A stretch of DNA of 64,000 bases, taken from the NCBI GenBank assembly GCA_900547955.1, contig URIR01000003.1, positions 11,711-75,710 on the forward strand. Reading direction: 5' to 3'. A program made the position numbers and the translations under genes. Shown here one piece after another: positions 1,697 through 52,713 of this stretch; the stretch's first letter is position 1, and each line of letters starts with the position of its first letter. Source of the stretch: an uncultured Eubacteriales bacterium (lineage in GTDB: Bacteria; Bacillota; Clostridia; Christensenellales; QALW01). The notes beneath the pieces were generated by a model. It was not told the origin of the DNA, did no database searches, and saw only the letters and a list, made by a program, of their open reading frames with translations.

Positions 1697-3604
1697 TCAG
1701 ATATCAAGGTCGGCTACAAGCAGAGCGTTCTGCTCTATAAATTCGCGCCGCGGCTCTACCTGGTCTCCCATCAGTATGGTAAATATCTGGTCGGCCGCCA
1801 TAGCGTCGTCTAATGTCACCTTAAGCAGCGTTCTGGTTGCGGGATTCATGGTGGTTTCCCAAAGCTGCTCTGCGTTCATTTCGCCCAATCCCTTATAGCG
1901 CTGCACCTCGTAATTCTGTCTGTCTATGGATTCAAGATATTGGTTCAGCTCTGTGTCATTGTAAAAATAGCTTATTTGCTTTGTGCGGGTCAGCGTCACT
2001 TTGAAGAGCGGCGGCTGGGCAATGTATACATAACCCTCCTCTATAAGCTTGGGCATATGCCGGAAAAAGAAGGTTAAAAGCAGGGTGCGTATATGGCTTC
2101 CGTCCACATCGGCGTCCGTCATGCATATTATCTTATGATAGCGCAGCTTTTCAGCATTGAACTCTACGTCTATGCCGGCGCCGAATGCGGTTATCATGGC
2201 CCGTATTTCGGCATTTTGAAGCATCTTGTCCAGCCGGGTGCGCTCTACGTTTAATATTTTGCCGCGCAGGGGAAGTATGGCCTGGAATTTGCTGTCGCGG
2301 CCCTGCTTTGCGCTTCCGCCCGCGCTGTCCCCCTCTACTATGAATATTTCGCAGTTTTCTGGATGGTTGTCCGAGCAGTCTGCCAGCTTGCCGGGCAGCG
2401 CGTTGGATTCCAGCACGTTTTTGCGCCGGGTAAGCTCTCTCGCCTTGCGCGCGGCCTCCCGCGCTCTGTTGGCCGTCAGGCATTTGTCTATTATGGCCCG
2501 CGCTTCATCCGGATGCTCTTCCAAAAATGCGTCCAGCGTGCTGCCCACCACGTTATCTACCAGCGAACGGAATTCCGAATTGCCCAGCTTGGTTTTAGTC
2601 TGTCCTTCAAACTGCGGCTCCTCCAATTTAACGCTTATAACCGCTACCAGCCCTTCGCGCACATCCTCGCCCGACAGGGAAGCCTCGTTGCTTTTTAGCA
2701 TATGGTGCCGCTTAGCGTAGTCGTTGACCACTCTAGTCAAGGCCGTCTTAAAGCCCTGAAGATGAGTGCCTCCCTCGTGAGTAGCTATATTGTTTGCGTA
2801 GGTATATATTAATTCATTATAGTTGTCGTTGTACTGCATGGCCACTTCCACTATGGAGGCGCCCTTGTCTCCTTCCATATAAAGCGGCTCGGGAGTCAGT
2901 GCATTCTTGTTCTTATTTAAATATTTAACAAATTCTATTATGCCGCCCTCATAATGAAATTCATCCTGGCGCCCTTCGCCGCGTTCATCCTTAATGCGTA
3001 TGCGTATGCCTTTATTCAAAAAGGCCAGCTCGCGCAGCCGGCTGCGTATTGTCTCGTAATTGAATTCTACTGTTTCAAATATCTCGCTGTCCGGCCGGAA
3101 ACGCTCATAGGTGCCCGTGCTTTGACATTCACCTATCACGGTAAGCTCATTAATGGGGTCTCCCCGGCGGTAATCCTGGGAGTATATTTTGCCGTTCCGG
3201 CTTATCTCCACATGCAGCTCCTCGCTCAGGGCGTTGACTACGCTCATGCCTACGCCGTGCAGGCCGCCTGAAACCTTATAACCGCCGCCGCCGAATTTAC
3301 CGCCCGCGTGCAGGATGGTCATGGCTACCTCTACGGCGGGCTTATGGTATTTTTCGTGCATATCTACCGGTATGCCGCGGCCGTTGTCCCGCACGCTTAC
3401 CGTTCCGTCTGCGTGCAGAATAACCTCTATGGTATCGCAGTAGCCTGCCAGCGCTTCGTCTATGCTGTTGTCCACCAGCTCGGTGACGAGGTGATGCAGG
3501 CCTCTTTCGTCAGTAGAGCCTATATACATTCCCGGCCTGCGGCGTACTGCCTCCAGCCCTTCCAGCACCTGAATTTGAGAAGCATCGTAATTGTTTTGCT
3601 GCAT
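1697..3604 (-). CDS. gyrB: DNA gyrase subunit B
   Basis: 635-aa ORF with the N-terminal ATPase signature [25 protein letters not shown], the Toprim [14 protein letters not shown] motif and the C-terminal [15 protein letters not shown]. Confidence 0.98.
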
Positions 3605-6143: not shown

Positions 6144-6162
6144 GCGCCAAATGGCGCGCCAT

Positions 6163-6247
6163 AGATAATATAATCAAAAGGGCAATGCGTTTTTAAAAGG
6201 ATATTGTTTTGTTTGTCCTGGGACGCATTGTATTTTGATTTTATTGA
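6163..6247. mobile_element. Miniature (85 bp) derivative of MITE family 1, TA-flanked
   Basis: Termini gataatataatcaaaagggcaatgcg and cgcattgtattttgattttattgat are inverted repeats related to the ends of the 276-284 bp copies. A TA dinucleotide lies on both sides (6161-6162 and 6248-6249). Confidence 0.55.
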
Positions 6248-6334
6248 TTAAATGATATAGTATTATATATTATATGTGTATGCAATAATTATATCTGGAT
6301 AAAAATTAACCAATTATTAACATTTGAGCGGGCG

Positions 6335-6426
6335 GGGGCCGGCGTTTGGCAGGCGCCGCAGGCGCCTGCCTGGGCCGGGCGCTGCCGCGCCCGGCCTGCG
6401 GCCGTACGGCCGCAAACGCCGGCCCC
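6335..6426. repeat. GC-rich cloverleaf palindrome (four-way junction), member 1
   Basis: Outer stem ggggccggcgttt (6335-6347) pairs with aaacgccggcccc (6414-6426). It encloses three perfect hairpins: ggcaggcgcc-gca-ggcgcctgcc (6348-6370), ggccgggcgc-tgcc-gcgcccggcc (6373-6396) and tgcggccg-ta-cggccgca (6397-6414). Confidence 0.85.
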
Positions 6427-6502
6427 GCAGAATAAAGCCGGGAAGAACGCTCAAAGATATAGCCCTGCTAGAAAGCGCAAAGCGGGCGGGATTATATAAT
6501 AA

Positions 6503-6594
6503 GGCGCCCCTGCCGCCGCGCAGCGTGCGGCGGCAGGGGCGCCCGGGCGCGCGTAAAACGCGCGCCCTCCTTTAAAGGGCGGGGCGTCCCCGCG
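6503..6594. repeat. Two perfect GC hairpins plus the CCTTTAAAGGGCGGGGCG motif
   Basis: A 17-bp stem ggcgcccctgccgccgc / gcggcggcaggggcgcc at 6503-6543, a 9-bp stem gggcgcgcg-taaaa-cgcgcgccc at 6545-6567, and the motif at 6565-6591. Confidence 0.8.
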
Positions 6595-6739: not shown

Positions 6740-6923
6740 AAAAAAGCCGCAAAACGCGCCGAATGCGGCAAAACGGTATGAAGCGGGAGGTTGCCGGAAT
6801 AATCCGGGTAATTTCCGCGGACAATTGTCCGATAATCGGACGACAGGCCAAATGGCCGCTTTAAAAATTTAAAAGCGGCACACACGGAAACGTGTATTTG
6901 AGCTTACAAGGAGGTTTATTTTA

Positions 6924-15433: not shown

Positions 15434-15532
15434 GAAGCAAAAGAATTTTTTCGGGGATGATGTCCGGCCGCATTCAGGGACGGATATAAATTAGGCGCAG
15501 GGGCGCGTTAGCGCGTGTTTATGGGCGTTCAG

Positions 15533-15700
15533 GTATGCAGGCGGAATGCGGACATGCGAGTATGCGGGCGCTCGAGTATACAGGCAGATATGCGGACATG
15601 AAGGCGGTTCGGGCGTTCGGGTATACAGGCAGGCATGCGGACATGCGAGTATGCGGGCGCTCGAGTATGCAGGCAGGTATGCGGACATGCGGGCGTTCGG
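15533..15700. repeat. GC-rich degenerate tandem repeat inside the rpsE-rpmD spacer
   Basis: Four 36-45 bp units start at 15533, 15576, 15621 and 15665. Each opens with GTAT(G/A)CAGGC(G/A)G..ATGCGGACATG. Units 1 and 3 also share gcgagtatgcgggcgctcga, giving a higher-order repeat of about 88 bp. Confidence 0.85.
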
Positions 15701-15952
15701 ATATGCGAACGCGGATTAGCCGCGGGCCGGGCATAGCGGCGCGAGCTGGCTTTGACCTCTCTTAACGCTAAGATTGCCTGTGGGCCGCGGAATACCAGCG
15801 TCAGGAGGCTGGCAGAATTTTAGACGCCCGGCGGAGCTTTATACGATAAATTATAAAGCGCGGATTATGCGCCTGTATTTGAAACCGTGCCGGCTGCGGG
15901 CCGCCGCGGGCAAAGCGCGGATGCTACTTTCAATAAGGAAAGGTATGATTAT

Positions 15953-16135
15953 ATGAAACTGAAGGTTACCCTTTTAAAGAGCACTATAGGATGCAAGCCC
16001 GATCAGATAGCCACAGTAAAGGCTCTGGGGCTGAAGAAGATTCGCTCCACAGTTGTTAAGGAGGACAATCCGGCTATGCGCGGAATGGTCTTTAAGGTTA
16101 AGCATCTTGTGGGCGTGGAGGAAATAGAGGATTAA
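15953..16135 (+). CDS. rpmD: 50S ribosomal protein L30
   Basis: The track ORF (15887) is over-extended. ATG at 15953 follows AAGGAAAGG and gives [18 protein letters not shown]..., a 60-aa uL30. Confidence 0.95.
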
Positions 16136-19534: not shown

Positions 19535-19828
19535 TTGAAGGAAGAGAATTTTCAGATTGGCCGGCTGGTGCGTTCCCGCCAGGGCCGCGACGCCGGCAGG
19601 TATTTTGTAATAACCGGCCTGCCTGAAGAGAATTACGCATATATTTCGGACGGGGCCGTGCGCAGGCTAAGCGCGCCCAAAAAGAAGAAATTAAAGCACC
19701 TGGAGCTTTGCCCGGAGGAAATACCGGCCGTAAGGGCCAAGCTGGAAGCAGGCAGCAAGGTTTTTGACAGCGAGCTGAAGAGCGCTATAGAAGCTCTGGG
19801 CTTTAATATCAAACAAAAACAGGAGTGA
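19535..19828 (+). CDS. KOW-domain RNA-binding protein
   Basis: 97 aa with a TTG start. It occupies the map-infA slot, as in many Clostridia, and has the [21 protein letters not shown]-like pattern. Confidence 0.8.
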
Positions 19829-19832
19829 GCCG

Positions 19833-20054
19833 ATGGCAAAGGAAGATGTAATGGAACTTGAGGGCGTAGTGGAGGAAACCATGCGCAACGCGGTATTTCA
19901 AGTAAGGCTGGAAAACGGGCACTGCATACAGGCCCATCTGGCTGGGAAGCTGCGCATGCATAATATACAGGTGCTGCCCGGAGACCATGTGACGGTGGAG
20001 ATATCTCCCTACGACCTTACAAAGGGCCGTATCATATGGAGGAGCAAGGGCTGA
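19833..20054 (+). CDS. infA: Translation initiation factor IF-1
   Basis: 73 aa; [15 protein letters not shown]...S1-like fold pattern. Confidence 0.98.
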
Positions 20055-20120
20055 GCGGAGATACCGCTTTATTAAACAGGCTGCCGCGTTTCGGGCAGGA
20101 ATTTTAAGGAGGAAACAAAA

Positions 20121-20237
20121 ATGAAGGTAAGGCCAAGCGTTAAGCCAATGTGCGACAAATGCAAGATAATAAAGAGAAAAGGCAAGGTTATGGTAATATG
20201 CCCTGCCGATAAGAGCCATAAGCAGAGACAGGGCTGA
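20121..20237 (+). CDS. rpmJ: 50S ribosomal protein L36
   Basis: Not in the ORF track (38 aa). ATG at 20121 follows AAGGAGGAAAC. The translation [38 protein letters not shown] is bL36. Confidence 0.96.
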
Positions 20238-21243
20238 AGAAGCTTTCCTGTTTGGGAAATTGCTGAGGGAATGCTCGTTTTAACGGCTTAAGGCGGATAA
20301 AACGGCCGGCGGTTTGGGTAGGCTGAGAGATTAGACTGCCGGACGGCAGGCTGAAGGATTAGGCCGCCGGGCGGCAGAGTCAACCCTTCCTATGGGTTTA
20401 AGCCCCGCCGTGCCCAATCGGGCGGGGCGGGATGAGCCAGGCAGAGTTAGGCGAGCGGGCCGGGCTGGGGACTGCGCTTAGGCGCAGGGCTTAAACGGCT
20501 CATACTTAGGCGGCCGCGCTTCTTCGCATGGCGGAAAAGCGTATGGCGCGCTGCTCGGGATTTTGCCTTAACGCGGCTTGGTTTGCCGGTGCGCGGCGGG
20601 TCTGAGCTTAAGCTTTGTTTTCGCCGCAGAAGGATAAAGCTGCGTTTTGCGCTCATGCTAGAGCGCCGGGCTGCCGCGGTCAGCGGATATTCTGCGTTAA
20701 AGCGCTGCGCTGCGATATGGCAGGCCGAGGCTTTGAGTTAATACCCTTTGACGGCTCCGATGAGGCGAAGCATGGGTTTTGGCTAAAGGGCTTTGTTGAC
20801 GCCGATACGGCGGGGTTTGCGCTTTGAGCAAAAGGTTTTGCCGGTCACGGCATGGCGAGGCCCTGCGTTTTGAGTTAATACGCAGCGTTTTGCGGCTTTG
20901 GCGCCGGCGCGCAGGTGCTGAATGAGCGCGGTTGATATGCGTTGAAGCGCCGGATTTAAGTCGTATTTCGGATTGCAGGCGCTTATACGGGCACTTGTTC
21001 TAAGCGTGCCGCAGGGATACGAGCGGTTTAACGAGCTGAGCAAAACCAAGAGCGCCGTTTCGGAATAATGGGCGCTTAAGGCTTGAGCCGGCAGGAGCGG
21101 CCGGCTGGGGTAAAAGGCAGGAAAATTCCCCGGAAACAGAAAATCAGGTCCCCCGCGGGCGCGGCTGAGCGGGTATAATTACCCCTTGCCCGCATAGGGA
21201 TTTTATATATTTTTCTTAAAAAATTTACGGAGGTGGAACCTAA
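20238..21243. repeat. About 1-kb GC-rich degenerate repeat and hairpin block between rpmJ and rpsM
   Basis: I see no credible ORF here. TTA(A/G)G-centred units recur every 30-45 bp. Small perfect hairpins are present (ctgcgc-ttag-gcgcag, agcttaagct, agccggc-aggagcg-gccggct). A decayed cloverleaf lies at 20396-20496. Confidence 0.75.
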
Positions 21244-21615
21244 ATGGCACGTATTGCCGGAATAGATCTTCCCAGAGAAAAGCGTATAGAAGTGGGAATC
21301 AGAAGCATTTATGGCATAGGTCCTGCTCGTTCTAAGGAGATTCTCGCCGCGACAGGGGTTAATCCTGATACGCGCGTGCGCGACCTTACCGACGACGAGG
21401 TAAACAGGCTCAGAGACTATATAGACAAGAATATCAAGGTGGAGGGCGACCTTCGCCGCGAGGTATCTCTTAATATCAAGCGGCTTATTGAGATAGGCTG
21501 CTACCGCGGTATTCGTCACCGCAAGGGCCTGCCCGTGCGCGGACAGAGCACCAAGCAGAACGCGCGCACCCGCAAAGGTCCCAAGAAGATTGTTGCGGGC
21601 AAGAAGAAAAAGTAA
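21244..21615 (+). CDS. rpsM: 30S ribosomal protein S13
   Basis: 123 aa; [14 protein letters not shown]... matches uS13. Confidence 0.98.
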
Positions 21616-21631
21616 GGGGAGGTTTGAATAA

Positions 21632-22033
21632 ATGGCAAAGCCTACTAATATTAAGAGAGGCGTGCGCCGCCGCGTTGAAAAAAAGAATATCGAGCGGGGT
21701 GCGGCTCATATCTGCTCGTCCTTTAATAATACTATAGTAACTATAACTGATACTGCCGGAAACGCCATAAGCTGGGCGAGCGCAGGAGGCCTGGGCTTCC
21801 GCGGCTCCAAGAAGAGCACTCCCTTCGCTGCGCAGATGGCGTCCGAGACGGCTGCTAAAGCGGCTATGGAGCATGGGCTCAGAACAGTAGAGGTATATGT
21901 TAAGGGCCCCGGTTCGGGACGCGAGGCCGCAATAAGAGCGCTGCAGGCTGCAGGACTGGAAATCAGCATGATTAAGGATGTCACACCCATCCCCCATAAC
22001 GGCTGCCGTCCTCCCAAGCGCAGAAGAGTATAA
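21632..22033 (+). CDS. rpsK: 30S ribosomal protein S11
   Basis: 133 aa; uS11 pattern. Confidence 0.98.
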
Positions 22034-24307: not shown

Positions 24308-24509
24308 TTTAGGAGCGCCTAAGCAGTTAAAGGGCCAGGGGGGCGGCGCGCCGCCCGGCCGAGCCAAAGGCTCGGCCGGGCCAGGCGGCCCGCATAATCC
24401 GGGGGCTTTTAGCCCCCGGATTATGCGGGCCGCCTGCTTTTGGCGCCCGTAAGGGCGCCAAAAGGGCGCGCCGCCCCCCTGGCCCTTTAACTGCTTAGGC
24501 GCTCCTAAA
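24308..24509. repeat. GC-rich cloverleaf palindrome (four-way junction), large member
   Basis: Perfect 45-bp outer arms at 24308-24352 and 24465-24509. They enclose three abutting perfect hairpins at 24353-24381, 24382-24436 and 24437-24464, with no unpaired junction nucleotide. Confidence 0.9.
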
Positions 24510-24528
24510 TTTATTTATCAGAATTTAT

Positions 24529-24948
24529 CTATACCCAAAAGAAGCCGGACTGCATGCTGCAGATCTGGCTTTTTCCTGTATTGGGATATAATTTGCGCTT
24601 CCTCTTTTGAAAGCTCTGTCTCCAAAAACGCGTTCCCATATCAGGACGAATATCCAGCAGTTCATTTGGATTCACTTTAAGAACGTTGCAGATAGAAGCG
24701 AGAATGTCTACGTCGGGGCGGTTAAGGCCCTGCTCCCAGTTGGATACGCGCGCATTGCTCACACTAATAAGCTTGGCAAATTTGATACCGTTGCGTATAA
24801 AGCGGGCATATTTCCGGCGGTATTTAAAAAATGCTTGATGGCCGGCGCACGATATATTCGGAGCAGTATAAGGCAATTTGCCAGGCGCTGGGGGTGGGGC
24901 TGAAACATTTTTAAATATTAAATTGGCATAGCCGGCTTCAAAAAGCAA
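24529..24948 (-). CDS. XRE-family helix-turn-helix protein (start uncertain, possibly decayed)
   Basis: The central stretch IKFAKLISVSNARVSNWEQGLNRPDVDILASICNVLKVNPNELL fits the Cro/C1 HTH pattern. The roughly 40-aa N-terminal extension has no recognisable feature. Confidence 0.5.
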   Translation of the reverse strand: MLFEAGYANLIFKNVSAPPPAPGKLPYTAPNISCAGHQAFFKYRRKYARFIRNGIKFAKLISVSNARVSNWEQGLNRPDVDILASICNVLKVNPNELLDIRPDMGTRFWRQSFQKRKRKLYPNTGKSQICSMQSGFFWV

Positions 24949-24975
24949 GCAAACGGATAAAGAATTTCTTGATGA

Positions 24976-26362
24976 GGATTACAGAGCCAGGGCGACCTTG
25001 TCTCTGCCCGCAGCCAAGGAGAAACTGGCGAGCGACATAATGTTTGTATATCCACAAGCGCGGATGTAGAGGAGGTGATGGTTGAAATGCTTTTTAATCT
25101 TAAGGCGCACGCTGAAAATTCGCAGGCCAGCGTTAAGGTCGGCGTCGTTATATTTAATAAGCAGGCTAACGTAACCTGTGTCCTTACCGATATTCAGACG
25201 GGCTATGAGGATATTTTAGAGGGCATCAGGACGGATATAAGCAGCGGCACCAATACTCATGCCGGTATCTTAGCGGGCAAAAAAATGCTGGATGAGGATT
25301 GCGCGGTGCCGGCCAGGCGAAAATATCTGATTTTTATAAGCGATGCGATAACATATATATAACGAAGAGCCTGCTGCTATTCCATCGCAGTTTGCGGAAA
25401 ACGCCGTATTTGCTGGTCCGGACGCATGGGCTAATAAATATCAGAATAATAATCCTCCAAGCGACTGTAATGAATTTTTGACTTCCGTCGGCGTTCAGAT
25501 TGAGGCGGATGGAGATACCTTTGAAGCAAACTACGGAGCAAAGGAGCCGTTTATCCCCTATTCAGAACGCAGCGGGCATGCTATGACGGTAGCTAAGGCG
25601 CTGTATAATACGGCCATGGCTTATAAAAGCGCCCAGGATGCGGGATATACCTGCTATGCCATAACAGCTTCCGCGTCGGCAGCCGCCTCCGAGCAATATT
25701 CATGGGGCCCTTCCTTTATGAATTATCTGGCTCAGGGAGAGAAGGTATCCTTTGACGGAATATACAATGAGGCAATATATCTTTTGGATGCGGGCAGCAG
25801 GGTTATTGACGTAATAGGCAGCGGGTAAGGCCAGTATAGGGACGGAGAGCTTATTGATAAGGGATATAATTTTGTAAACAGTCCGGAGACGCTGGAATTG
25901 AAGGTAGGGGAAGATAAATACGCGCTGACCCGGCTGGAGAATAAGGTATATGCCTTTGGAGAGGAGAACGGACAAAATCAATATCCCTTCATACTGCGTT
26001 ATTATCCCGAGGGGACTGCCTCAGAGCCGCGCGAGCATTTAGTTTGGGAAATTAACGCGCCGGTGGATATAACCAGACGGGCGAGCCTTACATATACTGT
26101 GGAGCTTGCCGACCCGCAGTCTGAGGCAGGGCTGTACACGCAGCTTTATACCAATGAGGAGGCAATTATATATCCTGTGGATACATGCGGCAGCGAAGGC
26201 GAGGGAGAATATTTTGAAAGACTTGCGGCAGCTTACAGAATTTTGCCTATGGAGGAGGAGCACCCGACGGGAGACGCCGGAGTTCTTCTGCTATGCTGCA
26301 TATTGGGCGTATGCGTCTCAGCCGTAATTTTGCTTAAAGTCTTAAAGGTCAGAAACGAATAG
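24976..26362 (+). pseudogene. Remnant of a vWA-domain, sortase-anchored surface protein
   Basis: Three ORF fragments (25075-25362, 25478-25828, 25898-26362) read through as one protein if two lesions are repaired. One is a frameshift at the (AT)4A tract at 25353-25361; the other is an in-frame TAA at 25826-25828. vWA motifs are present (SGTNTHAGI, LIFISDA). The C-terminus is HPTGD followed by a TM segment and a basic tail. The signal peptide and the DxSxS motif are missing. Confidence 0.75.
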
Positions 26363-26459
26363 AGGCCGGGGAGCAATTAGAAAACATTTAGTGCAGGAAA
26401 AACTCCTGGTCAGGGCGGGCCGCACGGCTATACTCCTGGATAAAGGCTGACGCTGCCAG

Positions 26460-26501
26460 AATAATGGACCGTCCATAATAGGATGGTCCATTATTTTTTT
26501 T
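26460..26501 (+). terminator. Intrinsic terminator after the vWA remnant
   Basis: Stem aataatggacc / ggtccattatt followed by a T-run. Confidence 0.65.
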
Positions 26502-26509
26502 GCGCCGGC

Positions 26510-26996
26510 GGAACCGTTCCGAGAGACTGATGAAATTGTACTGAGCTGGAAAAAGAGAAGAAAAGGGAAGCGGAACGTGAGAAAAATTTGTCTAGTATAT
26601 GAACAATTATAAGCATACTATATTTGGATATAACCATTTATTCCCTGTAAAAACCTGTGTAAAAAATCGTGAAAAGCAATAAAATTTAAAAAAAATCAGA
26701 AAAAAACGCAAAAATCTATTGCTTATCCACAGGTTTTTTGGTATCATTTATATTGCCGTCAGCGATTAGAGTAGCGCGGCGGCGATTTATAGTTCGGAGC
26801 TTAAAATGCTTTAAAAATATGCAAATCGCCCTTATATGGGCGTTTTTAGCCATTTAGGCCAATGAATAAATCTAGGGATTGTGCCTTATTTTAATAGGTC
26901 ATACACCATATAGAGTTATCAACAGCCTGTGGAAAAGTTTTGGACTATAAATTGTACTTTTTACTCGGTTAATATTTTTCTGGGGGTTGTTGAAGC
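26510..26996. promoter_or_regulatory. oriC-like AT-rich spacer with DnaA boxes upstream of dnaA
   Basis: One perfect DnaA box TTATCCACA at 26723-26731. TTATCAACA at 26916-26924 faces TGTGGAAAA at 26928-26936 (complement TTTTCCACA). Long A/T tracts lie around 26660-26715. Confidence 0.6.
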
Positions 26997-28322
26997 ATGC
27001 AGGATGCAAGTGAAATCTGGGCAAAGGTATCCGCCGTATTAAAAGAGACAAAGGAGATATCCAGCTTGGCCTATACTACCTGGCTTGCGTCTATAAAGCC
27101 GGCGCTTTTTCGGAACGACTGCCTATATCTGGTAGTACCCTCGGCGCTGCACCGAAATCATATTGTAGGAAACAGCAATTATAAAATATATATCAATACT
27201 GCGCTTAATATGGTCACGGGCAAGGAATGCTCTGTTGAGCTGCTGCTGGAGGGAGAAGTCAAGGATGTTATGCAGAGCGCCGTCCAGCCCAATAAATGGC
27301 CTATGCTCAACGACAAATATACCTTTGAAACCTTTGTTATAGGTCCCAGCAATCAGTTTGCCCAGGCGGCGGCTTTAAGCGTAGCCGAAGCGCCTGCTAC
27401 GCAGAATAACCCGCTTTTTATATACGGCGGCGTAGGGCTGGGCAAGACCCATTTAATGCATGCTATAGGCAACTATGTTTTGGAGCAGAATCCGGCTGTG
27501 CGCGTTTTATATACCACCTGTGAGAAATATACAAACGAATATATAGATTCCATACCTAAGAACCGGGTTGCAGCCTTTAGAGAGCATTACAGGAACAACG
27601 TGGATATTCTAATGATAGACGATATCCAGTTCCTCACCCGCAAGGAGCGTATTCAGGAGGAATTTTTCCATAATATTAACGAATTAGTATCGGCGAACAA
27701 GCAGATAATTATAACCAGCGACCGGCCGCCGCGGGATATAGCCACGCTGGAGGATAGGCTGCGCTCCCGCTTTGAGGGCGGATTGATAGTGGATATAACG
27801 CCGCCTGATTTGGAGACAAGAGTTGCTATTCTGCGCCTTAAGGCCGAGGCCTTTGGGGCGGTATTGGATAACGAGCTGCTGTTTTACATAGCCGAGCGGG
27901 CAAGCGACAACGTGCGCGAATTGGAAGGCTCTCTTAAGCGGGTTATAGCTTATTCCAGCATAATGGGGCAGGATATAACCTTTGAGCTGGTTTCGGAGGC
28001 TTTAAAGGACTATAACGCCGTACAGCAGCGCACCTTGACCGTGGATAAAATCATGGAGACGGTAGCGGAGTATTACGGCGTGGAGGTAGAGGAATTGGTG
28101 GGCAAAAAAAGAGACGCGGCTATAGTTATGCCCAGGCATATAGCTATGTATCTCTGCCGTGAGCATACCGACCTGTCTTTTCCCCGCATAGGAGACGAAT
28201 TTGGGGGCCGGGACCATTCTACCGTTATAAACGGCATAGGCAAGATACATCAGGCGCTTAAGACGGACCCTAAGGTAAAAACCTATGTGGAGGACATAGA
28301 GCGCCGGCTTCAAGGGGTTTAA
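26997..28322 (+). CDS. dnaA: Chromosomal replication initiator protein DnaA
   Basis: 441 aa; AAA+ Walker A GGVGLGKTHL; C-terminal DNA-binding domain DHSTVINGIGKI. Confidence 0.98.
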   Translation: MQDASEIWAKVSAVLKETKEISSLAYTTWLASIKPALFRNDCLYLVVPSALHRNHIVGNSNYKIYINTALNMVTGKECSVELLLEGEVKDVMQSAVQPNKWPMLNDKYTFETFVIGPSNQFAQAAALSVAEAPATQNNPLFIYGGVGLGKTHLMHAIGNYVLEQNPAVRVLYTTCEKYTNEYIDSIPKNRVAAFREHYRNNVDILMIDDIQFLTRKERIQEEFFHNINELVSANKQIIITSDRPPRDIATLEDRLRSRFEGGLIVDITPPDLETRVAILRLKAEAFGAVLDNELLFYIAERASDNVRELEGSLKRVIAYSSIMGQDITFELVSEALKDYNAVQQRTLTVDKIMETVAEYYGVEVEELVGKKRDAAIVMPRHIAMYLCREHTDLSFPRIGDEFGGRDHSTVINGIGKIHQALKTDPKVKTYVEDIERRLQGV

Positions 28323-43039: not shown

Positions 43040-43294
43040 ATTTTTCCCTCCGCGGCGCGTTTTTTATCCTTATTTATATTATACACCATTGCGCGCTAAA
43101 AACAAAGCGTTTTATTTAGGGCCTGGTGCTGAAAATATCGGCGTCCGCACTGGGAAGGGAGGCGTTCGGCTTTTTCAAACGGCCGGCCCGGGTGCGTTTT
43201 GAGCGAAAAACGAGGGTTTTTGCTGTATTTTAACAATAACAACTTGCTATTATCCTTTCTTATGTGCTATAATTACCGCCGTGAAAATTGTTTT

Positions 43295-43543
43295 CGGTTT
43301 AAACGGGCGCGGCTATACGCATAATTTTCTAAGCGGTAAAGCCTGAACGGCCGGCTGGAGACGCGGCTTTTTGAGCGGTTAAAGCCTGAACGGCCCGCTG
43401 GAGATGCTGTTTCCTGAGCGCGGATTTTTAAACGGCCGGCCGGGGCGCTGCTTTTTTGAGCGGGGAAAGCCTGAACGGCCGGACGCAAGGCTGTTTTTTG
43501 CATGCGGACGCTTAAGGCGGCCCGGCCGCCTGCGGCTGAATGC
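43295..43543. repeat. GC-rich tandem repeat with a 42-43 bp period
   Basis: Units start at 43330, 43373, 43416, 43458 and 43500. Units 1, 2 and 4 read ...gcgg(t)(t)aaagcctgaacggccgg...; units 1-4 end in a T-run (e.g. gctttttt). Unit 3 and especially unit 5 are more divergent. Confidence 0.85.
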
Positions 43544-43570
43544 TAATGCTGAAGGAGGAGATTGATTTAT

Positions 43571-45303: not shown

Positions 45304-46851
45304 ATGAAAAGATTTTTCGCTTATGCTGCGGCTTTTGCGCTTATGCTCAGCTTTGCTTCATGCGCTTCTTCAAGCGGACCTTCGCCGTCGGCTGAGGGGC
45401 TTAATGCTTTTAGCCCGTCTGCGGCGGCGGATTATAATTTGCCCCAAAATGGCGAAACGGCGGGAAACACTTTTGCCGCGGGCACTCTGCCTATAGGCAG
45501 TACGGCCGGCGGCGGAGCAGCGGCGGACGCCTCTGCCTCGGTTCAGCCTACCGGGACCGCTTATGCTTCTACGCCCACGCCTACGCCTACACCTGCGCCT
45601 ACGCCTACACCTACACCTACACCTACACCTACACCTGCGCCCACGCTTACGCCTGCTCCGCAGCCCTCTAAGACTACTGAACCTACGCTTTCGCCGCGGC
45701 CGACCGCTTCATATACGTCCGAGCCGACCACTACGCCCGTGAACGTCCCGATACCTACGGCGGTTATCGGCGAGCCCAAGGAGCATTATGACGATATCCA
45801 GGGGGTAAACGGCAAAAATAATGCAAGCAACTACAGATTGGCGTTTGTCAGCCTTCAAATAATAAATGCGGACAATTATATTTATTTTGTGGGCGGCGAG
45901 CCTCGGAACCAAATGGTTCCGTACGGCACTTACCGTCTGGATACCAGGACGGATAAGCTGGAATTTTTCAGCGGGGAACAGATGAATGAAATGTTTATAG
46001 CGGGCGAATGGCTGTATTATGAGATATATGATTCGGAAACTGATAGTTATTACAGCTACCGCATGCATTCGGACGGCACATGCCAGACCAGGCTCTCCTA
46101 TCTTATGCCTGACGTCTTCTGCTGCCTGGACGAATATCTTTATTATATAGAGGAGGGCAGCCTTTACCGCAGGCTTATATCGGGCGAGGATGAGCCCGTG
46201 CTTGCGCGAGAACCTGAACAGGACGAGGAGTTCAGCAGTATCTGCACGGACGGACAGAATTTATATATAGTAAGCGACAGCGCGGACGGCTCGCGCATAT
46301 ATAAGCAGAGCGGCTCGGAGAGCAAGATTCTTTGGACGGGGGATAATATTGGCGCTATAGTATATGACAGCGGCTATATATGGGGCGAGTCTCATTGGGA
46401 AGAGAATAAAGCGTATATTTTATTAAGGATAGACGCCGAAACAGGGGAAGAGGAATACACAGGCTTATGCGAGGATTACTCTAAGAGCAGATATTTCAAT
46501 ATAATTGATGGAACGCTGTACATTTTTGGCGATAGTTACGGCTTGCGTAATCTTGTAAGCATGGATATTAATTTTGAAAATAAGACAGAACTGGGTTATT
46601 TGACAACGGCGGGCAACATAAACGGTATAAACAGCGCTAGTTTCTGCGTTATCGGGGACTATTTCTGCTTTAAGGGGCCGGTTGGCAAGGGAGTGTATGA
46701 AAGCGTCGTGCTCTTTAAAAACGACGGCAGCAATAAATATATGGTAATAGATACGGATTTTCCCGACCCCGACGGGGAAGTCCCCAGCCGAGATTATCCT
46801 ATTATGGCATGGATGAAGGATGATTGGATGGACGAATATACAAGGCCGTAG
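45304..46851 (+). CDS. Lipoprotein with Pro/Thr-rich linker and beta-propeller-like (DUF5050-type) C-terminal region
   Basis: 515 aa; lipobox LSFASC; a (TP)n linker encoded at about 45571-45660; repeated YIYF/LYYI-type strands. Confidence 0.8.
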
Positions 46852-46856
46852 AATCA

Positions 46857-46988
46857 GAATGAAGAAAATTTGCGCGGGATAAAGCGCGTTTGCAGTAGAA
46901 ACGTACCGGGTGGTACCTGGAAGCAAAGCAACGCGGCAGGACGCAAATTTTATGCATTCTGGCCACGCAGTTTCTTGTAAACTTAGGG
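46857..46988. mobile_element. Partial copy (right part) of repeat family 2
   Basis: aagcaaagcaacgcggcaggacgcaaattttatgcattctgg...tttcttgtaaacttaggg aligns with 52650-52713. It ends 10 nt before the rpsF -35 box. Confidence 0.65.
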
Positions 46989-48118: not shown

Positions 48119-48143
48119 TAAATGCTTTAGGCAATAGTATTTT

Positions 48144-48179
48144 AAAGCCCCGGGAGGTTATAGCCGCCCGGGGCTTTTT
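48144..48179 (+). terminator. Intrinsic terminator after rpsR
   Basis: 11-bp stem aaagccccggg / cccggggcttt followed by a T-run. Confidence 0.8.
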
Positions 48180-48474
48180 ATTATATGATTGGCATTCCCT
48201 GCAAGCGCTGGTATGCTTTAAAAAGCGTCAATTTCGGACGGCAGCCGAGGGCGGGGCCTTGCTGGATTGCGGAAGGGACTTTAGAGCGGGCTGGCGTTGG
48301 CATATTTGCAATGGGGCGGAATATTTGTATTTGCGGACTGTATCAGCCGGTATGGCCGGATAGCCATATGGGCGGAATGAGAAGGTGCTTTTGATTGGCC
48401 GGGCTTTGAGCGGTTGAGCTTGGTTATCAAGCGGCCGTATGAGCGAAACGAGCGGGGGCAGAGACGGCAGGGCT

Positions 48475-48670
48475 GGCTGAGCGAGCTGGGATTACGAGGG
48501 AAACCAGCAGGGGCGGCTAAGCGAGCTGGGATTATGAGGGGAAACAGCAGGGCCGGCGGGGCGAGCTGGGATTATTGGGGAGAAAGGGCAAGGCCTGCAC
48601 GGCAGGTTGGGATTATAGTGAAGAAACAGCAGGACTGGCAGGGCGGGTATCGGATTAGGGGAGCAGGGGC
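48475..48670. repeat. GC-rich tandem repeat with a period of about 40 bp
   Basis: Units at 48475, 48515, 48555 and 48601, plus a decayed fifth. They share the core gctgggatta(c/t)..gg.gaaa..agcagg. Confidence 0.85.
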
Positions 48671-48789
48671 GGCGGGGCGCATAGAGGCGGAGACGGCGGG
48701 CTTAGCGCAGCGGTCGGACGGGCTGGGCGTGAAATGATTTTTTTGCGGTTAAAGCCGGGCTGGTAAAATGGCGGCGCAAAGAGAGAAAG

Positions 48790-48985
48790 TGCGGTATTTT
48801 GATGCGGCGAGGGGGACTTAAAGCACCCCTCTCTCCCCTCTCCCACCCTTTCTTTTTTTACTGCCCTTTTGCGCCCGAAAGCCCTGCGGCTGAGGCATTT
48901 TCCCCTGCAGACGCAGGAGAATCTGCAAACCAATATTTGCATATTATACCAAATAGCTTGTTCCTGTATTTTGATATCCATAGCC
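48790..48985 (-). repeat. Repeat family 3 unit (about 190 bp), inverted relative to the 51665-52035 copies
   Basis: The reverse complement aligns with 51851-52035. Both start with (g)gtatcaaaatacaggaa and end with a polypurine gggagag... block followed by gcatcaaaat(a/c)ccg. Confidence 0.7.
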
Positions 48986-49206
48986 TTTAGCATATAAGGC
49001 GCAGCGCCCTTTTTGCCGCCGAATTTGCTCTTATTGCCGTATTTCTCTTGCTGCGTTTTAGCGATAGGGCAGTTCGGGCGCTCTGCATGGGCGGAATTTA
49101 CTCTTTTGGCCTCTGAGACCTTTTTATATACTGCGGCTTTTCTTCAAAATATCCATTATTTTAACGGGCGGTGAGCAGTAATTTGTCTTTTATATACTCT
49201 CTTATC

Positions 49207-49235
49207 TTGACTTTATTACGTTATTGTGATAAAAT
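49207..49235 (+). promoter_or_regulatory. Candidate sigma-A promoter of the ABC transporter operon
   Basis: TTGACT (49207-49212), a 17-nt spacer, then TAAAAT (49230-49235). Confidence 0.55.
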
Positions 49236-49268
49236 TTCAGTCACTTAATAAGATAAAGGAGAGTTGTT

Positions 49269-52437: not shown

Positions 52438-52713
52438 CCCTCAGTTTACAAGGAACTACACGACTTAAAACGGGACAATTTCTTCATTTTCTGCGTTATA
52501 CTCAATCAGTATACTCATAAGTAGCGATTTCTTGGTCTGCCTTGAAAATGAAGAAATCCTTTTTCTTTGAGCTCTACAGAGTCAGAAGGCATAAAATTTG
52601 CGCCAGGTAAAGCGCGCTTGAAGGAAAAATGTATCCGGGCGTACATGGAATCAAAGCAACGCAGCAGGACGCAAATTTTATGCCTTCTGACCGTCTTCCT
52701 TGTAAACTGAGGG
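52438..52713. mobile_element. Repeat family 2, full-length MITE-like element (276 bp)
   Basis: 18-bp perfect terminal inverted repeat ccctcagtttacaaggaa (52438-52455) / ttccttgtaaactgaggg (52696-52713). An internal 22-bp perfect inverted repeat is gtcagaaggcataaaatttgcg (52581-52602) / cgcaaattttatgccttctgac (52670-52691). Confidence 0.8.

Follow-up and report, generated by a model that had tools for sequence, protein, structure and literature searches.

The S10-spc-alpha cluster of ribosomal-protein genes is among the most conserved and most tightly packed gene arrangements in bacteria. Non-coding sequence of several kinds has nevertheless been described within bacterial operons. The MIRU-type minisatellites of mycobacteria consist of non-coding units of 40–100 bp that lie between co-directional operon genes and are oriented with the operon, and the REP and BIME elements of enterobacteria are GC-rich extragenic palindromes that lie within operons or behind them, where they can have a protective or modulating effect on mRNA. 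Directly upstream of rpsM, Escherichia coli carries the alpha-operon leader (Rfam RF00140, Alpha_RBS), the site of autoregulation by ribosomal protein S4. Intergenic variation of another kind was described by Thorpe et al. (2018) in the Piggy paper as the ‘switched’ intergenic region, in which the same gene pair, itself conserved, encloses alleles that are below 90% identical; that paper leaves the origin of the alternative allele open and also summarizes earlier E. coli work on switched intergenic regions and horizontal regulatory transfer (PMC5890482). Here we analyze a stretch of 64,000 nucleotides (the window) from an uncultured Eubacteriales bacterium of the gut (contig URIR01000003.1), in which a non-coding spacer of about 1 kb separates rpmJ, encoding ribosomal protein L36, from rpsM, encoding ribosomal protein S13. 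Within the species this spacer occurs as two deeply diverged alleles, and the switch between them inside flanks that are 99–100% identical is the most interesting aspect of the locus.

An enlarged spacer inside the ribosomal-protein supercluster

The window contains a complete S10-spc-alpha supercluster, from about 6.9 to 24.3 kb, with an S10-Clostridia leader ahead of it. An initial annotation of this DNA, made from the sequence alone, had pointed to a GC-rich, non-coding block of about 1006 bp between rpmJ and rpsM, and these statements hold: the gap between the last base of rpmJ (20237) and the first of rpsM (21244) is exactly 1006 bp, it lies at a junction within the operon, and it has 57.3% G+C, compared with 50.7% for the window, with a local maximum of 65%. 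Its base composition (G 36%, C 23%, T 22%, A 19%) is G-rich and C-poor. The genes for L36 and S13 are indeed normally adjacent. Across 150 other loci with both genes, taken from 80 species genomes and 80 metagenome contigs, the spacer between them has a median length of 37 bp; its 95th percentile is 266 bp, and the longest one measures 528 bp. The annotation was also correct that a second junction of the supercluster is enlarged, namely the rpsE-rpmD spacer of 520 bp with its 44-nt tandem array, giving at least two enlarged junctions in this ribosomal-protein supercluster. The rpmJ-rpsM enlargement is thus real and unusual, and it is non-coding and without a known family.

Two spacer alleles within one species

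When comparing contigs that encode exactly the same L36 and S13, we found two groups of spacers in this species. The two genes flank the spacer in the window and in each of the contigs L162, L163, L165, L168, L170–L174, L176 and L186. Each allele is stable from one independent sample to the next. Two further independent assemblies (L176 and L186) contain the window allele (1006 bp) with no difference at all, and the second allele (972–982 bp) is present in at least five assemblies (L162, L163, L165, L168 and L170–L174). Between the two groups, the flanking genes are 99.0–100% identical, the 4-fold degenerate sites of twelve of them differ by 1.0–1.5%, and other spacers are 97.5–100% identical. 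Both ends of the rpmJ-rpsM spacer are themselves identical (Table 1). The core enclosed by these ends is only about 56% identical, with 458 identical positions, 197 transitions, 164 transversions and 68 gap columns (transition/transversion ratio 1.2), which corresponds to a Jukes-Cantor distance K of about 0.66. Identity is flat along the alignment, at 52–66% per 50 columns.

The two cores are homologous and colinear. With nhmmer, the cores by themselves score 115 bits, whole spacers align in two segments of 109.9 and 164.4 bits, and local alignment scores between the alleles lie far above those of shuffled sequences. Past about position 20750 the alleles have no significant local match, and a shift of about 80 nt in some of the matches is what the gain or loss of repeat units would produce. 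On the reverse strand, nhmmer found nothing significant between the alleles, and no part of the core is inverted.

Among strains of the second-allele class, the core differs by 0.1–1.5%, compared with 0.1–0.6% in the mostly coding flanks, showing that each allele evolves at an ordinary neutral rate. We considered that G-rich non-coding blocks might be generally hypervariable, but this is ruled out because other long blocks of this type in the same strains (43040–43561 and the 1150-bp stretch at 48119–49268) are 96–99% identical. Strains of Candidatus Neochristensenella gallicola, the closest named relative, are 98–99% identical in their own large spacers. Given the low difference within the class and the stability of the other blocks, the divergence of the two alleles is neither the result of ongoing hypermutation nor a general property of such blocks.

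The enlargement is limited to one species

The S13 of N. gallicola is 99% identical to that of the window and its L36 is identical, with DNA identity of 81–87%; a metagenome scan with S13 revealed no relative closer than 81%. Comparative genomics of the junction, which the initial annotation had proposed, shows that the enlargement is limited to one species. Sister lineages have spacers of 199–203 bp (203 bp in N. gallicola, represented by L161, 199 bp in L185, a more distant congener, and 203 bp in L189, from another lineage), and the spacer of L001 is short as well. As the sister lineages have about 200 bp, some 800 bp have been added in this species alone. At 4-fold sites, the species of the window diverges from N. 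gallicola by K = 0.44 and from L185 by K = 0.71, and the distance between the two spacer alleles therefore exceeds the neutral distance to N. gallicola, a sister species that does not have the insert at all.

The short spacers align with both ends of the long one, on the left at a GGGAATG motif past the hairpin that follows rpmJ, and on the right from a hairpin that we call hairpin B through the rpsM leader. The species-specific extra sequence comprises about 770 bp (roughly 20278–21049) and about 45 nt around 21077–21120. A GGAAATTCCC element that is common to the sister species also lies inside the variable part. We tested and rejected the idea that the core arose by duplication of ancestral spacer modules, as the spacers of N. 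gallicola and L185 match the 3′ end only. N. gallicola has an enlargement of its own elsewhere: at 3445–3954 of L161, the secY-adk spacer contains about 360 nt of extra sequence and measures 510 bp, compared with 180 bp in the window. Enlargement has thus affected different supercluster junctions in different species of the genus.

The ancestral elements at the two ends have survived. At the place equivalent to the hairpin behind the rpmJ stop codon, N. gallicola has a hairpin with the stem TCCCC/GGGGG rather than TTTCC/GGGAAA. Hairpin B is identical by eye at 23 of 26 positions to GCGCGCCGTTTGGATAATGGGCGCG of N. gallicola, the spacer of which was aligned by nhmmer from hairpin B onward, and in the second allele it has a changed sequence while keeping a GCGCGC/GCGCGC stem. 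The rpsM leader contains a long interrupted hairpin (about 21146–21203) and a Shine-Dalgarno sequence, GGAGG, at 21230–21234. A TATAAT sequence in the inner loop of this hairpin (21174–21179) is species-specific; sister species read TTTTTT there. The leader is conserved across the genus, in both N. gallicola and L185 (E 1e-17), and its match to Alpha_RBS (21167–21277) is weak, with 18.1 bits compared with a gathering score of 38 and an E-value of 0.18. It may be an unrecognized ribosomal-protein leader, or it may contain a new internal promoter.

Table 1. Features of the rpmJ-rpsM junction (positions in the window)
Feature	Position	Strand	Remarks
rpmJ (ribosomal protein L36, 38 aa)	20121..20237	+	Open reading frame; upstream boundary of the spacer; the identical product is PF00444 in related contigs
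Conserved 5′ end of spacer	20238..20272	+	35 nt, 100% identical between alleles
Small hairpin directly after the rpmJ stop codon	20241..20264	+	No U-tract
Hypervariable non-coding core	20273..21137	+	About 865 bp; G 36%, C 23%, T 22%, A 19%; most of it (about 20278–21049) absent from sister species
Tandem duplication of a 28-nt unit	20317..20372	+	Two copies; 27-nt gap (one copy) in the second allele
Hairpin B	21051..21076	+	6-bp GC stem AGCGCC/GGCGCT with A/T-rich loop; within the variable core
Perfect 7-bp hairpin AGCCGGC-aggagcg-GCCGGCT	21086..21106	+	In the extra sequence of about 45 nt between hairpin B and GGAAATTCCC
Conserved rpsM leader	21138..21243	+	106 nt, 100% identical between alleles
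rpsM (ribosomal protein S13, 123 aa)	21244..21615	+	Downstream boundary; first gene of rpsM-rpsK-rpsD-rpoA-rplQ

Repeats and hairpins in the spacer

The initial annotation had described a repeat block with a loose periodicity of 30–45 bp, marked by TTA(A/G)G cores, and with many short perfect hairpins. The cores are enriched, with nine occurrences compared with 4.3 ± 1.9 expected (nine were reached in 19 of 1000 shuffles), and the second allele has eight compared with 2.5 expected. The positions that had been listed for them were partly wrong: six of ten are true sites, those at 20330, 20491 and 20568 read TTAGA, TTAAA and TTAAC, and the one placed at 20516 is 10 nt off the true site at 20506. 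As for the periodicity, only a faint signal was recovered, with autocorrelation at lag 45 (z 3.5–4.2) and lag 91 (z 3.0–3.3), and the suggested run of Tandem Repeats Finder on the spacer reported a sole repeat, a 28-nt unit in 2.1 copies at 20320–20377. The autocorrelation of the second allele peaks at lag 85, and this allele contains a 72-nt duplicate with 79% identity (E 1e-13). TTAA, TTAAG, GTTTTG and GCCGG are enriched in both alleles; GGA motifs of the CsrA type were dropped from consideration because their enrichment is found in one allele only.

The abundance of perfect hairpins was not borne out. Counting perfect Watson-Crick stems only, we found 11, 3 and 1 with at least 5, 6 and 7 bp, respectively, compared with 8.7 ± 3.1, 2.6 ± 1.6 and 0.7 ± 0.9 in dinucleotide shuffles, and both alleles are at chance level. 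A repeat block full of perfect hairpins is therefore an overstatement, and the repeat signal comes down to weak autocorrelation at 45 and 91 nt together with the enrichment of short motifs. To judge from these faint signs, the added sequence resembles repeat DNA that has decayed, its short units measuring about 45 nt and 85–90 nt, and it is not an array of hairpins. A BLAST search of the spacer against the rest of the window returned only chance matches of 13–15 nt, and nhmmer revealed no relationship between the core and the blocks at 15434–15953, 43300–43560, 48395–48700, 6324–6575, 24309–24509 or 1499–1696. A resemblance by eye to the 43-nt unit of the tandem array at 43338 (TAAAGC...GCCGG...GTTTTTTGAG) was rejected, as a profile of that unit gave only noise-level matches in the spacer.

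Searches for genes, structured RNA and regulatory signals

The spacer has no credible open reading frame (ORF), as had been stated before. The longest encode 88 aa (− strand), 70 aa (+ strand) and 69 aa (− strand), and no Pfam family was found for any spacer ORF or stop-to-stop segment of at least 41 aa, with NCBIfam giving one noise-level match to the same set (E 0.098; 10.8 bits compared with a cut-off of 768 bits). Among 5.8 billion proteins, the 88-aa ORF retrieved only its own copy. The second allele has different ORFs on other strands, and none of those in the spacer is kept between the alleles. By all of these measures (an ORF kept between alleles, a homologue or a family match), we found no sign of a protein-coding gene.

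For RNA, Rfam at gathering thresholds, applied to the window and its relatives, identified nothing in the core of either allele or in the spacers of the sister species, and at E ≤ 10 on 20000–21400 the core was left without a match except for a noise-level snoRNA (11.8 bits). A tRNA and tmRNA scan identified none. Thus, neither a conserved structured RNA nor a coding gene recognizable by homology, the two findings that the initial annotation had named as speaking against its view, was detected. No promoter-like site of the sigma-70 type was found in 19800–21700, and no terminator-like site was called within the spacer.

The + strand of the spacer folds better than the − strand (−440 compared with −357 kcal/mol, or −0.45 kcal/mol per nt for the + strand), mostly as an effect of composition. 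The fold of the window allele is modestly below shuffles with a z-score of about −3.6, and that of the second allele is at +0.3; for comparison, genuine palindromic elements at other places in the window have z-scores of −22 and −8. The covariation term that RNAalifold returned for the two allele classes is +0.93. Of the base pairs predicted in one allele, 58–65% were still paired after transfer to the other, compared with about 40% in slid controls. Among transferred pairs with one side changed, 37–40% survive, which equals the background, and among those with both sides changed, 36–58% survive, at or only modestly above it. There is therefore neither a covariance-model match nor a pattern of compensatory changes in the core, and a constrained RNA fold is not supported.

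Other features of the window

Several further non-coding blocks are present in and around the supercluster. In the rpsE-rpmD spacer (15434–15953), a tandem array with 44/89-nt units occupies 15523–15707, and the spacer measures 430, 474, 519, 520 or 528 bp across strains, which makes it a true copy-number variant; its counterpart in N. gallicola is 473 bp. Directly after rplQ, a perfectly paired palindrome of 200 nt (24309–24509) forms a three-way junction (−221.7 kcal/mol, z = −22) in which a stem of about 45 bp closes off three inner hairpins. The palindrome is conserved in second-allele strains and, in part, in N. gallicola. It appears to break assemblies, since this is where many metagenome contigs start or stop. 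Another block of nested palindromes with 71% GC (6324–6575, z = −8.1), which includes a closing stem with three hairpins, lies between a stretch of 28% GC (6144–6323) and the S10-Clostridia leader (6770–6843).

Downstream of rplQ is dnaA (region 24511–26510 and 26997–28322), with a perfect DnaA box, TTATCCACA, at 26722. The gap between rplQ and dnaA in the window (24511–26510) holds fragments of two genes, a helix-turn-helix (HTH) gene and a VWA gene. N. gallicola has the VWA gene in intact form (509 aa), and second-allele strains have lost the whole stretch. In every contig that covers both sites, the state of this indel goes with the type of spacer allele.

Two more tandem arrays, both 96–99% identical between strains, are located at 43338–43528 (43/85-nt units, just upstream of an ORF at 43562) and at 48460–48645 (40-nt units, in the 1150-bp non-coding stretch after rpsR). 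The composition of 48395–48654 is G 44% and C 18%. A dispersed repeat of about 135 nt occurs at 46854–46988, upstream of rpsF, and at about 52578–52713, in the non-coding region at 51.6–53.5 kb, with 78–79% identity between the copies. The ORF at 45304–46851 contains 14 copies of the hexanucleotide CTACGC (45569–45654) and is the most variable coding sequence that we compared between strains (94.5–97.3% identity, with indels).

Origin and maintenance of the two alleles

The explanation that we favor, and to which we give about an even chance of being right as a whole, is that the spacer is passive, co-transcribed filler of decayed repeats, tolerated because it is C-poor and base-paired, and that one of its alleles was replaced by recombination. 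About 800 bp of species-specific, G-rich and C-poor sequence lies inside the ancestral spacer of about 200 bp, the functional ends of which are intact (the hairpin after rpmJ, hairpin B and the rpsM leader), and would be carried passively in a read-through transcript linking the spc and alpha gene blocks. Such co-transcription is suggested by the scan of the spacer, which detected neither a promoter-like nor a terminator-like site. Untranslated RNA that is low in C and heavily paired should be a poor loading site for the termination factor Rho, and the insert would then not be polar on rpsM, rpsK, rpsD, rpoA and rplQ. Tolerance of this sort is consistent with the heavy base-pairing and with the near absence of 78-nt windows that have more C than G: only 27 of 928 do, all within about 21113–21228, a stretch that runs into the conserved leader. 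The ordinary intergenic DNA of the window is AT-rich (28–42% GC) and the 4-fold sites of the cluster are C-rich (42% C), and the same C-poor signature is found in the rpsE-rpmD spacer and in the block at 48.4 kb (48395–48654). As for the two alleles, deep divergence between identical ends, combined with the ordinary neutral rate of each, points to recombinational replacement of one of them, as in a switched intergenic region, rather than to ongoing hypermutation.

A number of observations weigh against this explanation. Co-transcription and evasion of Rho are both steps that we infer from the sequence. The flanks adjoining the core (440 nt on one side and about 900 nt on the other) have one difference each, whereas diverged flanks would be expected had the core simply been imported by homologous recombination from a diverged relative; a replacement with such sharp bounds is not explained by an import of this kind. 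No donor was found for either allele, and the added 770 bp matches neither the ancestral modules, nor the other tandem arrays of the window, nor the rest of the 64 kb. Furthermore, a useless insert of 800 bp would be expected to be deleted, yet both alleles have kept nearly the same length (972–1006 bp) and composition (G 34–36%, C 23%) in spite of a difference of about 44%, and such constancy at about 0.66 substitutions per site hints at constraint on length or composition.

This constancy of length and composition also speaks for a functional RNA spacer, selected for those two properties and not for its sequence, with alleles that tune expression of the alpha operon. The spacer might be an insulator or processing platform that uncouples the stability or translation of spc from alpha, or it might set the dosage of the alpha operon (rpsM, rpsK, rpsD, rpoA and rplQ), in which case the two alleles would give different levels of expression. 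In line with such a role, the C-poor composition is shared with the rpsE-rpmD spacer and 48395–48654 and is unlike the AT-rich intergenic DNA, the GC stem of hairpin B has been kept through sequence change, and switched intergenic regions have been tied to expression differences in Staphylococcus aureus (PMC5890482). However, the sister species manage with 200 bp, and there is no conserved structure, no covariation and no known RNA family, which leaves this possibility on the unlikely side. A more elaborate version, in which the 865-bp core is an RNA spacer constrained in length and composition (for example a Rho-proof insulator or a protein-binding scaffold), ancient alleles are kept for different dosage of S13, S11, S4, RNA polymerase alpha and L17, and the cassette is exchanged between the 35-nt and 106-nt ends by an undescribed mechanism, is a long shot. 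We are doubtful, too, that the core is what remains of a foreign insertion after decay, be it of a degraded gene or of a non-autonomous mobile element, with two family members or two states of decay present in the two clades. The added sequence of the window allele is essentially one block from GGGAATG to hairpin B, its boundaries are sharp with identical flanks, and gene decay and indels occur near the cluster, as in the VWA and HTH fragments at 24511–26510. Against this, no inverted-repeat pair spans the core, the only long-range pair (arms at 20202–20223 and 21074–21095, 73% complementary) having its left arm inside rpmJ, and no target duplication is visible by eye at the junctions. No other copy was found in the window or in the fetched loci that we searched, and searches of phage and plasmid DNA gave no match to the core, so that none of the marks of a miniature inverted-repeat transposable element or an insertion sequence derivative (terminal inverted repeats, target-site duplication, multiple copies) was seen in the window, loci, phages or plasmids. 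No frame has a Pfam family, and the one NCBIfam match is at noise level. The two alleles are colinear homologues and not unrelated inserts, and the variable part contains ancestral pieces, namely hairpin B and the GGAAATTCCC element.

Two further explanations fare worse. The better fold of the + strand, the z-score of the window allele and the highly expressed context would suit a gene for a large structured non-coding RNA similar in kind to OLE, GOLLD or ROOL, or else an elaborate ribosomal-protein leader, but the Rfam search at E ≤ 10, the z-score of the second allele and the lack of a compensatory signal all argue the other way. The core is also absent from sister species, and 56% identity between conspecific strains is incompatible with a constrained fold. 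This very improbable reading is thus largely refuted. The second half of the core, in which the alleles have no significant direct-strand match, could be taken to mean that the spacer is invertible and phase-variable, or else an artefact of assembly. The reverse strand gives no significant match either, and three independent assemblies contain the same 1006-bp sequence, with at least five containing the other allele, so inversion and artefact are refuted and their probability is negligible.

Returning to the replaced filler that we favor, the locus shows that large and rapidly replaced stretches of non-coding DNA can be accommodated even in the S10-spc-alpha cluster. Should the alleles alter expression downstream, including that of rpoA, regulation would be switched at the heart of the translation and transcription machinery. 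The rpmJ-rpsM alleles also provide a concrete case for studying the exchange of intergenic alleles in gut bacteria.

Comparison with known systems

Like the REP and BIME elements, the rpmJ-rpsM block is GC-rich, extragenic and located within an operon. It differs from them in that its palindromes, counted as perfect stems, are not over-represented, and in having no conserved unit and no dispersed family in the 64 kb, whereas units of the REP and BIME type occur in many dispersed copies associated with a RAYT transposase. The resemblance to Alpha_RBS is one of position, a conserved structured leader directly upstream of rpsM in the rpsM-rpsK-rpsD-rpoA-rplQ block; the match of 18 bits is below the gathering score and covers the last 77 nt or so of the spacer and the first rpsM codons, not the 865-bp core. 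With the MIRU-type minisatellites the block shares its non-coding nature and its place between co-directional operon genes. Its apparent units, however, have decayed to autocorrelation and motif enrichment, and there are no small coupling ORFs. Copy-number polymorphism of the MIRU kind was not observed, since the alleles differ mainly by substitutions; the clearest repeat-unit indels between them are one 27–28-nt unit and one 10-nt indel. It is the 44-nt array in the rpsE-rpmD spacer that, unlike the rpmJ-rpsM block, has the copy-number polymorphism of a MIRU-like variable number tandem repeat.

The closest agreement is with the switched intergenic regions described with Piggy. The same gene pair encloses both alleles, with rpmJ and rpsM adjacent on one contig in all strains compared, and the divergence is well beyond the defined level, the core being about 56% identical and the flanks 99–100%. 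The cases reported with Piggy are mostly promoter regions of ordinary size; the rpmJ-rpsM block measures about 1 kb, separates two co-directional genes of the most conserved operon cluster, and has both regulatory ends untouched. Also different from the described switched regions, its alleles are still colinear homologues. Among known kinds, the rpmJ-rpsM block is therefore nearest to two, the switched intergenic region and the repeat-derived spacer within an operon.

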